Shown here one piece after another: positions 43,309 to 58,082 of a stretch of DNA of 64,000 nt. A model generated the notes under the pieces. It saw nothing but the letters and a program-made list of their open reading frames with translations, ran no database searches and was not told the DNA's origin. The position numbers and the translations under genes are program-made. Every line of letters begins with the position of its first letter. Positions within the stretch are counted from its first letter, which is position 1. Source of the DNA: Promethearchaeota archaeon (GTDB taxonomy: Archaea > Asgardarchaeota > Lokiarchaeia > Sigyniarchaeales > SOKP01); NCBI GenBank assembly GCA_016839705.1, contig JAEOTR010000079.1, positions 1 to 64,000 of the forward strand, in the 5' to 3' direction.

Positions 43309-43380
43309 GCGCTCGTTGTGTAGTGGCTATCATCCAGGACTTCCAATTCTGGGACCCGGGTTCAATTCCCGGCGGGCGCA
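43309..43380 (+). tRNA. tRNA-Gly(UCC), intronless
   Basis: GCGCTCG/CGGGCGC acceptor, CAGGA-CT TCC AA-TTCTG, CCGGG TTCAATT CCCGG. Confidence 0.95.
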
Positions 43381-45526: not shown

Positions 45527-46882
45527 ATGACCAAAGAGAATTTAGAAAAAAGCGATAATGATACCTCAATTTCTGAGGAATTGGTAGTTATTATTAAAAA
45601 CACGATTGAGAAATTCAATAAATCTGACCTTGTATTAGATGAAATTGAAGAATGGAAGGGAGTTATCCAATTTAATTTGGATGACAATTCTTCTTTTTAT
45701 ATTTTCAATTCGGACTCAAAAATAAAATACACTGAGGGCAAAGCGAATGATCCAGACTTTACCTTAATATTAACCCCAATGTTAGCTAAGAAAATTTTTT
45801 CTGGAGAAATGGACATTAGGAGTTTCTTTAACGCATTAACAAATAAAGAATTGGAATTACAAGGAGATTCCTCTCATTTTATGAAACTTACTGTACTACT
45901 TGAATTTCTTGAAGAGAATAAAAGTCAAGAATTAAAAAGTGGGAAAGAAGATTGGATTGTAGAAACCCCAGAGAACCACGGAATGAGATCAGATCTTCTA
46001 GAGGATGCTGCTAGAAAATTGAAAGAAATAGATATAAATCGTAATAGTTTTGTGGTAATTCGACATGGAGTATTAATATATGAAGAATACTATGGCCAAC
46101 GCAGTTATGACACACGCCTAAAATGGCATTATGATATTGCTTCAGTTACCAAAACAATAGCTGCTTTAGTCGTCGGAGTTGCAGTAACTAAAGGATTATT
46201 TAGTGTTGATGATCTTATTACTGATTGGATTCCTAATCCTGCAAATGGTATCGTACCCGGTTCAAAAATTAAACATGTATTAACTCAAACCTCTGAAAGT
46301 GAACCAGCTGGAACAAAATTCAAGTATAATAGTGAAGATGAAGTAAATACATTAGGTAAAATCATAACTATAGCATCTGGAATACCCTCTAAACAATTCG
46401 CACAAACTAATCTCTTCCAACCCTTAGGAGTTAATAATTATTCCTGGGGTGAGGTAGTAGCTGATATGACTGATCTTCCAATTGGTTATGGAATGAAAAT
46501 ATCCTCTAGAGATGCAGCAAAACTGGGGCAATTAATGCTAAACAAAGGTAGATGGAATGGGAAACAACTTATATCTGAAGAATATCTAGAAGAAATGACT
46601 AAACCTAGTTTTCTTGAGACTAATAGTGGTTATGGATATCTTATGTGGTTAAACAACTCTTTAGGAAAATGGCAAAGACCGTTTAAAAATGGTACAGGAA
46701 GTATGATCCCTAACGCTCCCGAGGATATGTTTATGGCAACTGGCTTCTATGGACGATTTATTTTTGTAATTCCTAGTTTAGATATAGTTATCGTCACCTT
46801 TGGGAAAAAATTTGTAATGGAAAGCCTGGATACAGCAAGAAAATTTTTTAACGCATTTGCACCAGCATTACCTTCTCAATAA
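45527..46882 (+). CDS. SCP2 + serine hydrolase (beta-lactamase family) fusion
   Basis: N-terminal SCP2-like (PDFTL...LELQGD); ASVTK, FKYNS, YGYLMW, ATGFYG. Confidence 0.8.
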   Translation: MTKENLEKSDNDTSISEELVVIIKNTIEKFNKSDLVLDEIEEWKGVIQFNLDDNSSFYIFNSDSKIKYTEGKANDPDFTLILTPMLAKKIFSGEMDIRSFFNALTNKELELQGDSSHFMKLTVLLEFLEENKSQELKSGKEDWIVETPENHGMRSDLLEDAARKLKEIDINRNSFVVIRHGVLIYEEYYGQRSYDTRLKWHYDIASVTKTIAALVVGVAVTKGLFSVDDLITDWIPNPANGIVPGSKIKHVLTQTSESEPAGTKFKYNSEDEVNTLGKIITIASGIPSKQFAQTNLFQPLGVNNYSWGEVVADMTDLPIGYGMKISSRDAAKLGQLMLNKGRWNGKQLISEEYLEEMTKPSFLETNSGYGYLMWLNNSLGKWQRPFKNGTGSMIPNAPEDMFMATGFYGRFIFVIPSLDIVIVTFGKKFVMESLDTARKFFNAFAPALPSQ

Positions 46883-46997
46883 ATTTTTCAAATTTTCATA
46901 ACAACCAGAATTTTGTAATAGAATTTATGAAGAGATAAGTTATTTAAATACAAAAAATAAATAATAAAAAAGAGATTTTAGAGGTGAAAAAAATAAA

Positions 46998-48026
46998 ATG
47001 CGAGCCGCCTTAATTCAAGAATATGGTAAAGTTAGTATAGTAGATGTTCCTAAACCTTCTCCCGCATCTGGGGAAGCCCTAGTTAAAATTACTACCGCAG
47101 GTGTTTGCCATTCGGACTTGCATCTTGTAATGGGCGATTGGATGAAACTACCAACACCACGTCCTATTGGTCATGAAGGTATTGGGATAGTTGAGGAATT
47201 GGGTCTTGACAATAAATCTGATATAAAAGTAGGTGATAGGGTTATATTAGGACTTGGTGGAACAGGCGGATATTGGTGTGGAACCTGTGAGTATTGTCTT
47301 GCTGGAGAAACTAACTACTGTCCCCAAAGTAAACCTATATTCGGAATATTTAGTGAATATATTTCTCTTTGGGCACCCTCTTTGGTAAAAATTCCTGATG
47401 AACTAAGTGATACTGAAGTACCTTTAGCATGCGGTGGGTTAACTGCCTATGGAGCAATCAAAAAACTAAAGAGGCTGAACATATCCCCTGGGAGTAATAT
47501 TGCCATTATCGGAGCTGCTGGAGGACTTGGTCATTATGCTGTGCAGATCGCAAAAACATTTGGGTATAAAGTTATTGGTGTTGATACAGGTCCAGAAAAA
47601 TTAGAAATCGTCGAGAAACTTGGTGCTGACTATGCAATAGATGTTAGTGAAGCAGGGAAATTTGTTACACAAAATTTAAAGGGAGTTCAAGCAAGCATAG
47701 TATTTGCAGCAAATATTTCTGCTTATAACCTTGGATTAAGTTTACTCAAGGTAGGAGGAACATTAATTGGAGCAGGCTTACCGCCATTCAGCGAAGGAGG
47801 AATCACAATTACCCCATTCATCCTAATAATGAGAAATTTACACATCACTGGATCTAAAACTGGGACTGTAGAAGATATGAAAGATTTAGTCCAATTAGCT
47901 GTAGAAGGCAAGGTTAAAACTCATGTCGGTAGAACTGCAAATCTTTCAGAACTTAATGAAGTATTTGAGGAAATGCTCAACGGAAAATTCGTAGGAAGAG
48001 CCATTATTAATAATCTCATGAAATAA
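46998..48026 (+). CDS. zinc-dependent alcohol dehydrogenase
   Basis: GVCHSD, GHEG, CGTCEYC...C, GAAGGLG. Confidence 0.92.
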   Translation: MRAALIQEYGKVSIVDVPKPSPASGEALVKITTAGVCHSDLHLVMGDWMKLPTPRPIGHEGIGIVEELGLDNKSDIKVGDRVILGLGGTGGYWCGTCEYCLAGETNYCPQSKPIFGIFSEYISLWAPSLVKIPDELSDTEVPLACGGLTAYGAIKKLKRLNISPGSNIAIIGAAGGLGHYAVQIAKTFGYKVIGVDTGPEKLEIVEKLGADYAIDVSEAGKFVTQNLKGVQASIVFAANISAYNLGLSLLKVGGTLIGAGLPPFSEGGITITPFILIMRNLHITGSKTGTVEDMKDLVQLAVEGKVKTHVGRTANLSELNEVFEEMLNGKFVGRAIINNLMK

Positions 48027-48079
48027 TACCATGAAAAATTATTCTAATTGCGATAATCTAAATAGAAAATTAAAATCCT

Positions 48080-48760
48080 ATGAAATACAAGGCTATTATT
48101 TTTGACCTATTTGGTACTCTTGTCGATAGTTATTCTGTTCAAGGATACAACAAATTATTAACAGATATGGCTTCAGCTCTCGAATTACCTCGTGAAGGTT
48201 TTTCAAAGCTTTGGCGTGATACAACTTATGAACGTGGAACTGGGATTTTTAAAACCACTGAAGACAGTATAAAGTATATTTGTGATATTCTTAAAGTATC
48301 TATAAGTGAGGAAAATATTAAGAAATGTGAACAGATCAGACAAAAAACTTCACGCAAAGCTTTAGCTCCTAAAAATGGAGCTGTTGGGATTTTAAAACGT
48401 TTAAGAGGATTAGGATATAAGATTGGATTAATAACTAATTGTTCTGCCGAAGTACCTCTCCTATGGAAAAATACAGAATTTTCTCATTTATTTGATGTTA
48501 CCATATTCTCCGCTTCAGTTGGTATGAAAAAACCCGACGCTCAAATATATAATTTAGCATGTGAACAATTGGGTGTCGAACCAAGTGAATGCCTCTACTT
48601 TGGGGATGGTGATAGTAATGAACTATCGGGAGCTTCTCAGCTTGGTATGGATGCTGTTATGATTCGGGATCCGAATGAGTTGGACCCCTATCGTTTAGTT
48701 GAGGTCGTGTGGGATGGTCGGAAAATTGAAAATTTCACAGAGATAATGGATCTGATATAA
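48080..48760 (+). CDS. HAD family hydrolase
   Basis: FDLFGTL, KKPD, GDG. Confidence 0.88.
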   Translation: MKYKAIIFDLFGTLVDSYSVQGYNKLLTDMASALELPREGFSKLWRDTTYERGTGIFKTTEDSIKYICDILKVSISEENIKKCEQIRQKTSRKALAPKNGAVGILKRLRGLGYKIGLITNCSAEVPLLWKNTEFSHLFDVTIFSASVGMKKPDAQIYNLACEQLGVEPSECLYFGDGDSNELSGASQLGMDAVMIRDPNELDPYRLVEVVWDGRKIENFTEIMDLI

Positions 48761-48839
48761 CTGTTTTTATATTATCAAAAAAGAAGTTTCCTTTTAAGAA
48801 CTAAAAATATTTTTCTATTTATTTTAATTGTTTCAAATG

Positions 48840-49714
48840 AAATTTCATTGAAATCAGACCCCGAATTTACCTTTCCATTTCAACTTCACAGAAAATTGGG
48901 AAGAAATTTAAAAAAGTTCTAATCTTGTATCTCTTATTATTATTTGATAATAGATCCTGGAGGTTCAGATTAATTCATATTTAATAGGCTTGAAGTATAT
49001 TTCTTTATTTCCTCAGAATTTTTTTTCAACTTATTTTAAAAGTATTTCCTTCTAAAAGTATTAAAATCAGAAAATCTTTTAAAATCAAATTCATTGTTGG
49101 TATTAATTATCATAGAAATTAGAAATCAAAAATATGCAATTCGACATGAAAAAATTTATTAAAATAATTTTAGGAGTTTTCTCAATCTTCATAGTTTTAT
49201 TTGCACCTTATGGATATCATATTCATTTAAATCCTGGTCCTAATTCAATAGTCGCTATGATTTGGGAATATTCTACCTATTACTCTTTTAGATATTTTTC
49301 TCCATTAGGTTATTATATTGAATTTTATATATTTCGAATTGTTGTTCTTTACTACATTTTTAGATTCCTTTTAGAAAAAACTTCAAAAAAGAGAATGATT
49401 ATTTTAGGTATAATTAATGAGATAATACCCTTAATTCTATCAATTCTAGGCGCGTTAATAGTTAACTCAGAAGGGGAATATCTCAGGGCTATCATAATTT
49501 CGATCCCAATTCTATTTTTATTTGATCTTTTCGTTGTTTATATATATCCTAAACTCAATAATATCGTCTAAAAAATATACTATTTTCGAGAGTGGACATC
49601 ACGGGGGAGAGAGGTAAAATAAAAGTAGAAAATATGATGATTAAAATAAATCTATAAATATGATTCTCTTCTAAATTAAATTTCATTGAAACCAAAGTCT
49701 GAATTTACCTTTCC
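48840..49714 (+). repeat. imperfect 37-bp direct repeat flanking the 49134 gene (48840-48876 and 49678-49714)
   Basis: AAATTTCATTGAAA-N9-GAATTTACCTTTCC present twice with identical spacing. Confidence 0.7.
49134..49571 (+). CDS. membrane protein
   Basis: About 4 hydrophobic segments. Confidence 0.7.
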   Translation: MQFDMKKFIKIILGVFSIFIVLFAPYGYHIHLNPGPNSIVAMIWEYSTYYSFRYFSPLGYYIEFYIFRIVVLYYIFRFLLEKTSKKRMIILGIINEIIPLILSILGALIVNSEGEYLRAIIISIPILFLFDLFVVYIYPKLNNIV

Positions 49715-49993
49715 GGAGATTTAAGAAGTCTTGAATCTTAATATACTTCCCTTTAGAAAAAATAATTAGTGGTGCATTTCTAAATTAGGAAATCTTTAAG
49801 AAACCGCGGATAAATGAAAAAAAAATTTTAAATGAGATTTCTTCCCCTTGAATTTGTACTTTTTATCCCTTTTCTCACTTTTTATGTTCTCATTTAAGGA
49901 CTAAAAATATTTTTATGAGATTCTTTACTTTAATTTCTATCTTATTTATGATAATAAATTGTATATTATCAAAAAATAAGATATTTCATAGGT

Positions 49994-50195
49994 GCCAAGG
50001 TGGCGTAGCCCGGTTCATCGCGTTAGAGCTCCTTATTGTAGGGTAAGAACGCACCAGATTCATCGGAGTTACCGATAAAGGTGAAACTGAAGATCTGGGT
50101 ATCGAGAAAAAATTGGGTCTCTTCGACCGTTTTCGGGAAGGTTCAAAAGAAAAACCCGCATTCGAGCTTTTTGGGAACTCCCTCCCTTGGCACCA
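49994..50195 (+). tRNA. tRNA-Phe(GAA) with four putative introns (50014-50046, 50058-50085, 50107-50139, 50148-50178)
   Basis: Joined exons give GCCAAGG TG GCGT AGCCCGGGA ACGC A CCAGA CTGAAGA TCTGG GTATC GAGGG TTCAAAT CCCTC CCTTGGC ACCA with all four stems perfectly paired; BHB-like junctions. Confidence 0.85.
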
Positions 50196-57672: not shown

Positions 57673-57806
57673 TGGGCCAGGCAGGATTCGAACCTGCGAC
57701 ATCCCAAAACGAAGTTCGCCGAAAAACGCCGAATTTGTCCGAAGCCGGGCACCCTTGCTGGTGTTTTCCATATTGGAAATAAAAATCCAGGCTAGATTAC
57801 AGGCCC
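57673..57806 (-). tRNA. tRNA-Arg(UCG) with two introns (D-loop 57756-57784; ~39/40 57707-57736)
   Basis: GGGCCTG...ATCT AGCCTGGAT|A GGGT G CCCGG CT TCG GA C|TGGG ATGTC GCAGG TTCGAAT CCTGC; the D-loop BHB has a perfect CTGG/CCAG helix. Confidence 0.88.
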
Positions 57807-57975: not shown

Positions 57976-58082
57976 TGGCGCGGCTAGCGGGATTTTCTAA
58001 AAAGCTCGAAGGGAACTTTCTTTTGAACCCGCGTCGCAGGAGTGACAGTCCCGAATGCTAGACCGGGCTACACTATAGCCGC
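57976..58082 (-). tRNA. tRNA-Asp(GUC) with T-loop (59/60) intron 57993-58021
   Basis: GCGGCTA/TAGCCGC acceptor, CGGGA CT GTC AC TCCTG, GCGGG TTCAAA|T CCCGC, encoded CCA. Confidence 0.92.

Follow-up and report, generated by a model that had tools for sequence, protein, structure and literature searches.

The window analyzed here, a 64,000-nucleotide stretch of contig JAEOTR010000079.1 from a Promethearchaeota archaeon, contains at 49994-50195 a locus that becomes a 77-nt tRNA-Phe(GAA) once four internal segments are removed (Table 1). Run on the joined exons, ARAGORN reports this tRNA with 21 of 21 stem pairs and an encoded CCA at the 3′ end. The four introns and five exons, and every boundary given for them in a preliminary description of the locus, are exact. 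In Sprinzl numbering the introns lie at 19/20, 30/31, 51/52, and 59/60, and the 37/38 site is empty.

Table 1. Exons and introns of the tRNA-Phe gene, and the neighboring tRNA-Asp gene (positions in the window).
Feature	Position	Strand	Description
Exon 1, tRNA positions 1-19	49994..50013	+	20 nt; acceptor 5′ strand, D-stem 5′ strand, D-loop to G19
Intron 1, site 19/20	50014..50046	+	33 nt; helix GCCC/GGGT, bulges GGT and AAG
Exon 2, positions 20-30	50047..50057	+	11 nt
Intron 2, site 30/31	50058..50085	+	28 nt; helix CACC/GGTG, bulges AGA and AAA, good inner helix (HBh')
Exon 3, positions 31-51	50086..50106	+	21 nt; anticodon GAA at 50089-50091
Intron 3, site 51/52	50107..50139	+	33 nt; relaxed helix ATCG/CGGG, 4-bp inner helix
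Exon 4, positions 52-59	50140..50147	+	8 nt
Intron 4, site 59/60	50148..50178	+	31 nt; helix TTCA/GGGA, 5-bp inner helix
Exon 5, positions 60-76	50179..50195	+	17 nt; discriminator A, encoded CCA
tRNA-Asp(GTC)	gene 57976-58082; intron 57993..58021	-	29-nt intron at 59/60; 8 kb from tRNA-Phe

All four intron junctions stand in bulge-helix-bulge (BHB) register, with predicted cleavage after the second bulge base, each showing the marks of an EndA-type intron: a 4-bp helix between 3-nt bulges, at least one flanking helix, and a cloverleaf that is restored on removal. The central pairs in register number 4/4 for intron 1 (one of them G-U) and for intron 2, and 3/4 each for introns 3 and 4, which are relaxed motifs with both flanking helices present. 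The outer helix of intron 1 is the D-stem, following an A14-A21 mismatch, and its inner helix has one pair in register; that of intron 3 is non-native, with five pairs joining positions 41-45 to 53-57. An equivalent placement exists for intron 2 only, a slide of 1 nt, and the slid register abolishes the helix. The preliminary description named one fold that would overturn this structure, an alternative D-arm with a TTAGA anticodon stem; it is ruled out by intron-free orthologs with the same exons. A split or permuted tRNA was likewise rejected, the five exons being collinear within 202 nt and second exon copies not being found in the genome.

ARAGORN and Rfam miss this gene, as had been anticipated for standard tRNA finders: they give no match at the genomic locus, and ARAGORN with an intron search and a relaxed threshold returns noise only; an annotation relying on ARAGORN and Rfam would report a genome lacking tRNA-Phe, an error that the gene corrects. 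We scanned the 3.36-Mb assembly with a score combining a tRNA profile and stem pairing, in which inserts of 11-75 nt may occur in any number and the splice motif plays no part. The scan found all four inserts unaided, placing intron 1 2 nt off, and scored the locus at 92. Real tRNA genes score 65-122 and the best non-tRNA parse in the genome reaches 47; hence the structure is not a product of chance. The tRNA-Phe gene with four non-canonical BHB introns is genuine, and we put the probability that it is functional, with splicing inferred from the motifs, at roughly 90%.

A second tRNA-Phe, which the preliminary description had proposed looking for, is not among the 43 tRNA genes that the genome-wide scan recovered, and every exon marker tested is single-copy in the assembly. 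Very probably, this is the sole tRNA-Phe gene of this Promethearchaeia (Loki) archaeon; the assembly is 93% complete with 6.8% contamination, and some isoacceptors are missing from the scan, so that a second gene could be absent from it. Altogether the genome has ~48 introns in 43 tRNA genes, or ~1.1 per tRNA, a count that is approximate because of imperfect parses at C76:23868, at C25:73787, and in a Sec-like gene. Eleven genes have no intron, 19 have one, 11 have two, one has three, and one has four, which makes tRNA-Phe the extreme case of this genome.

Orthologous genes put the locus in a wider context. A search for the exact 20-mer of exon 1 gives 52 GTDB records, almost all with the title Promethearchaeota, Promethearchaeia, or uncultured archaeon, and the same-genus genome G081 (contig C34) has the same gene as JAUVXW010000002.1 (Promethearchaeota); these named relatives point to a Loki-type Asgard host. 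Across 102 distinct orthologs, the number of introns per gene is one in 22, two in 30, three in 27, four in 19, and five in none; four genes are intron-free, one of these being a weak, truncated alignment. As the orthologs are not independent, these counts describe constraint and not a number of events. Exons are near-invariant, with compensatory stem changes, and the mature sequence of our gene is the commonest variant (17/102). The intron-free orthologs L017/L072 and L065 have the same exons save for compensatory stem changes. Orthologous introns concentrate at lengths of 28-31 nt and at few sites: 30/31 (55 orthologs), 19/20 (53), 59/60 (43), 51/52 (24), 15/16 (24), 58/59 (13), 22/23 (10), and 37/38 (6). 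Each of the four sites used here is unoccupied in 46-76% of the orthologs, and 14 of the 102 have exactly the set 19/20, 30/31, 51/52, 59/60.

At 19/20 all 53 orthologous introns pair 4/4 in the central helix, as do all 55 at 30/31, where an exon with CACT faces an intron with GGTG or AGTG. At 51/52, seven of 24 pair 4/4 and 17 pair 3/4; at 59/60 the figures are 21 and 22 of 43. Thus 175 of 175 orthologous introns at these four sites have at least 3/4 central pairs in BHB register, with registers picked only among sequence-equivalent slides. Shuffled introns reach at least 3/4 pairs in 5.5-14.5% of cases and 4/4 in 0.3-1.5% (the intron 1 shuffle null is 0.8%).

Several minor observations emerged from this survey. 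The exon-1 20-mer is also present in a few records with other titles (L045, L033, L050, L060, L063, L064). One Gemmatimonadetes-titled record has it as a chance match and gives no tRNA-Phe parse. Those titled Hermod-, Hod-, or Odinarchaeota have alleles of the Loki kind; L033, L050, and L060, at the least, correspond to genomes that GTDB puts in the host's family, and the record titles may be outdated. L223 (G146, of another genus) has a 59/60 intron belonging to a family placed at 58/59 in L005, L015, L040, and L168, a one-base site shift, and its 14-nt upstream leader is identical to that in the window. One metagenome-assembled genome (MAG; JAGXNO01, G004) has two tRNA-Phe genes, L043 and L048, with different intron sets, reflecting a strain mixture or a duplication. 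An 11-nt insert at 3/4 in L008 was discarded as an alignment artifact. Searches for viral carriers (two exon patterns against IMG/VR) and for the exact intron-1 pattern in JGI metagenomes gave no matches.

Judging from its genes, the host encodes a predicted broad-specificity EndA, with the loop lysine, and an RtcB ligase (C25:19832-21139). The EndA catalytic subunit (197 aa, G000:C56:35901-36491) has Aeropyrum pernix EndA as its best solved relative (3p1z_B, E 1.3e-34), and its K55 aligns with K44 of the Crenarchaea-specific loop. This loop has been tied to the cleavage of relaxed, non-canonical motifs and has been reported in Asgard enzymes (PMC5829648). A second EndA paralog, the presumed β subunit, is present in five of five congeners and was not found in this assembly; its neighbor genes are missing too, and an assembly gap is therefore likely.

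We propose that one precursor of about 200 nt would be transcribed from the locus, that an (αβ)2 EndA of the broad-specificity TACK/Asgard type would cut each intron at its strict or relaxed BHB after the second bulge base, and that RtcB would ligate the exons, as in the established pathway. The introns would leave singly, with local refolding between steps, because exon 4 cannot simultaneously be the outer helix of intron 3 and the central helix of intron 4, and because the intron 2 helix takes C25 from the D-stem flanking intron 1. Such competition for exon bases was recognized in the preliminary description, which also argued for an ordered pathway; the first point stands, and of the second there is left a soft bias, with no obligatory order. 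Each central helix is built from six exon bases upstream and the intron's own 3′ end, so that none requires the prior removal of another intron. The full precursor can accommodate all four cores in register, each together with one flanking helix or more, and we found no core that forms only after another intron's removal. With intron 3 present, intron 4 retains two outer pairs (exon 4) and here gains four more from the 3′ end of intron 3, an addition seen in 2/14 orthologs.

Constrained folding of all intermediates suggests that kinetics would favor an order, most likely one with 3 before 4, without imposing strict nesting. Removing intron 3 eases the intron 4 motif by 0.9-4.1 kcal/mol in 14/14 orthologs, and the reverse effect of intron 4 removal on intron 3 is ~0 kcal/mol. 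Here the easing is 0.9 kcal/mol, with a modeled P(3 before 4) of 0.61; 4-before-3 is favored in 4/14 orthologs. The best full order differs among orthologs, and the most probable order for our gene has a probability of 0.18. Relative to the unconstrained precursor ensemble the motifs cost 5.7-9.1 kcal/mol, in a model that leaves out enzyme binding, modifications, and co-transcriptional folding. A soft kinetic bias toward 3 before 4 is plausible on this modeling, rather than a fixed pathway. The introns themselves would be dispensable inserts at a few splice-permissive sites, subject to fast turnover.

An obligatory nested order for the same gene, with intron 4 cleavable only once intron 3 has been removed and the exons ligated, as in some Thermoproteales, is unlikely. 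It would agree with the easing of the intron 4 motif in all 14 orthologs, with the sharing of exon 4 by the motifs of introns 3 and 4, and with the T-loop intron that accompanies the 51/52 intron in 23 of 24 orthologs (relatives that are not independent). The small effect computed here, the four orthologs that prefer the opposite order, and the central helices available in the full precursor speak against it. RNA data bear on the same question. In the one metatranscriptome run (0.05 share), two contigs cover 49974-50106 only, one of them a fold-back. A 137-nt RNA contig of a close relative agrees with 49982-50106 apart from one nucleotide deleted at 50019; it keeps introns 1 and 2, its exon 3 runs straight into exon 4, and it ends 5 nt past the 59/60 cut with five unmatched bases. 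As a splicing intermediate it would favor the nested order, but the exon 3-exon 4 join occurs as DNA in G081/L046 and in the metagenome contig L144, both of which have the same 1-nt deletion in intron 1 and no intron 3 in DNA, and it may be a genomic allele. The contig is thus ambiguous between an intermediate without intron 3 and an allele without it. The mature junctions appear in no read or contig. A sigma-70 promoter scan, a model unsuited to archaea, gave chance-level results.

We also considered whether the locus could be a pseudogene, decayed or left unspliced, with a working tRNA-Phe in an unassembled part of the genome. The incompleteness and contamination of the assembly, the isoacceptors missing from the scan, and the two relaxed motifs would allow for it; against this, the mature sequence is that of the commonest ortholog variant with all 21 pairs intact, the neighborhood is syntenic with congeners, and 13 other distinct orthologs have the same four sites with diverged introns and intact helices. 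We regard a pseudogene as very improbable.

The literature already has four-intron tRNA genes from Asgard archaea, and this gene is a further example rather than a new kind, extending such genes to the Loki class. In three complete Asgard genomes, introns are present in 92-95% of tRNA genes; the four-intron genes listed are Arg-TCT, Ile2-CAT, and Leu-GAG of Freyarchaeia and Trp-CCA of Atabeyarchaeia-2, two of which had all four introns called by tRNAscan-SE 2 (Valentin-Alvarado et al. 2024, PMC11291895 and its Supplementary Data 4). In a 2026 Asgard census (Goswami et al. 2026, bioRxiv 10.64898/2026.10.13.758758), genes of the focal families average 2.2 inserts, with a maximum of five. The ceiling of about three introns given in the preliminary description holds for Thermoproteales, for which the reviews PMC4033280 and PMC3978253 give a maximum of three (Sugahara 2008; Fujishima 2010), and fails for Asgard archaea. 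With an Asgard host, at least two introns, and four non-canonical sites, our gene belongs with the Asgard multi-intron tRNAs (Atabeyarchaeia, Freyarchaeia/Jordiarchaeia). It has in common with them several ~30-nt non-canonical BHB introns at D-arm and T-arm sites, a presumed (αβ)2 EndA, frequent recent gains, and invisibility to standard annotation. The differences are the host, a member of the Promethearchaeia with ~1.1 introns per tRNA versus the 2.2 given for the focal families in the census, whose main text leaves Loki lineages unnamed, and the number of introns in tRNA-Phe itself, three in the published Asgard examples and four here.

Multi-intron tRNAs of Thermoproteales resemble ours in their non-canonical sites, relaxed motifs, EndA with the Crenarchaea-specific loop, and related introns across tRNA species. 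In their nested cases, as reviewed in PMC3978253 (Tocchini-Valentini 2009), the last motif needs the other introns removed, whereas no such motif is seen here. Within-genome sharing of introns across tRNA types at 80% identity or more amounts to 28% in Thermoproteales and to 0/48 in our genome, which shows none of the large-scale transposition of the Thermoproteales type. The closest experimental model for the proposed pathway is, by analogy, Cyanidioschyzon merolae, whose tRNAs also have independently foldable BHB motifs, and in which experiments showed the introns to be processed one after another, the order being flexible in part and correlated with the stability of the motifs (Soma et al. 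2013, PMC3728597). Those are eukaryotic nuclear genes with at most three introns, and the 37/38 intron, a site empty here, is out last. With an 8-nt exon common to two motifs, our gene offers a compact substrate for Asgard EndA acting on crowded, relaxed motifs; according to the census, splicing has yet to be demonstrated for any of the Asgard inserts that it newly identified.

How the four introns came together is a separate question. Compared with G081, identity is 97% for intron 1, 100% for intron 2, and 71-78% for the flanking genes. The G081 tRNA-Phe gene has its own upstream region, lacks intron 3, and carries an unrelated intron 4 (52%). Other same-site introns common to the two genomes are 67-95% identical; the 97-100% identity of introns 1 and 2 is high, yet not wholly beyond this range. 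More generally, 514 pairs of loci differ at 2.8-3.1 sites whether their flanks are 60% or 90% identical. Where flanks are more than 90% identical, the intron set differs in 6/9 pairs, and one pair at 94% has no common site. Intron and flank identity are weakly correlated (rho 0.35-0.43), so vertical descent contributes.

A second tRNA gene in the window is also pertinent. The tRNA-Asp(GTC) gene (Table 1), missed by ARAGORN and Rfam, has a 59/60 intron 71% identical to intron 4 of tRNA-Phe and 87-90% identical to the 59/60 intron of tRNA-Phe in the congener G014. The 71% match, the best of any intron pair within the genome, is reached by 3/40 shuffles, and the best-of-239 shuffle maximum is 0.73. 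Across genomes the family is clear: its members sit at the tRNA-Asp 59/60 site of our genome and of three congeners, at 83-93% identity to the Phe versions; a single ancestral Phe-Asp transfer would account for its presence in tRNA-Asp. Families of this cross-isotype kind are rare (1.5%) in the focal lineages of the census. The tRNA-Asp ortholog of G081 lacks the 59/60 intron and has a D-arm intron instead.

Intron sets that barely track the flanks, the near-identical introns 1 and 2, and the Phe/Asp family together suggest recombination through exons. As a tentative reading, somewhat short of even odds, Loki-type Asgard tRNA introns may be modules that pass from one species to another, and at times from one tRNA type to another, when recombination or gene conversion acts through near-invariant exons. 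As part of that reading, and held just as tentatively, the four-intron gene may be a mosaic stacked from swapped tracts. The comparisons behind it are made among draft MAGs and short, constrained sequences, with flank identity taken from whichever genes align and no species tree. An assembly chimera of co-occurring Loki strain alleles, stitched through identical exons, would give the same mosaic look, with introns 1 and 2 near-identical to those of G081 and introns 3 and 4 like those of other species, but is scarcely credible given shared exons of just 8-21 nt and a four-site architecture that recurs in 13 more distinct sequences, all drawn from genomes and metagenomes independent of this one. 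The census describes repeated recent intron gains and BHB enrichment with no general arrival route, and calls intron arrival the central open problem; within-genome copying, mobile elements, and reverse transcription are tested there, and interspecies exchange is not among the routes tested. If true, exchange between species would supply a route that the census leaves open. Intron arrival can be studied in the series formed by these 102 natural alleles, whose near-fixed exons carry 25-plus combinations of introns.

Other tRNA genes were noted along the way. In the window, tRNA-Arg(TCG) at 57673-57806 (-) has two introns, of 29 nt in the D-loop and 30 nt in the anticodon stem near 41/42, and its G081 ortholog has one anticodon-loop intron; tRNA-Gly(TCC) at 43309-43380 (+) is intron-free and is the sole tRNA found by standard tools in the window. 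Elsewhere, the three-intron gene at G000:C87:134764-134939 (+) has inserts in the D-arm, anticodon loop, and variable region, and its best BHB splice gives the anticodon TAT, that is, tRNA-Ile(UAU). Archaea seldom have this tRNA. The genome-wide scan recovered no Ile2(CAT) gene, and an Ile-TAT gene of Atabeyarchaeia-2 is listed as a possible pseudogene (PMC11291895). A gene resembling tRNA-Sec (UCA anticodon), apparently with an insert in the D-arm, lies at the end of C16 and at the end of C87 (about C87:137433-137553, -); an ARAGORN "SeC" call on C18 looks spurious. Three tRNA-Ser(CGA) genes (C93:1708-1812, C81:106524-106628, C48:1729-1815) and two tRNA-Arg(GCG) genes (C92:68245, C67:494) were found, the extra copies on 2-5-kb contigs that may belong to the 6.8% contamination.

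Upstream of tRNA-Phe, an element at 48807-49695 has imperfect inverted repeats as its bounds and encloses a 145-aa ORF (49134-49571) with no Pfam match. The left end of this element is multi-copy in congeners, and the whole is possibly a small mobile element. It sits within a 4.4-kb block (45527-49900) between tRNA-Phe and its upstream neighbors, a block that is absent at this position in G081.
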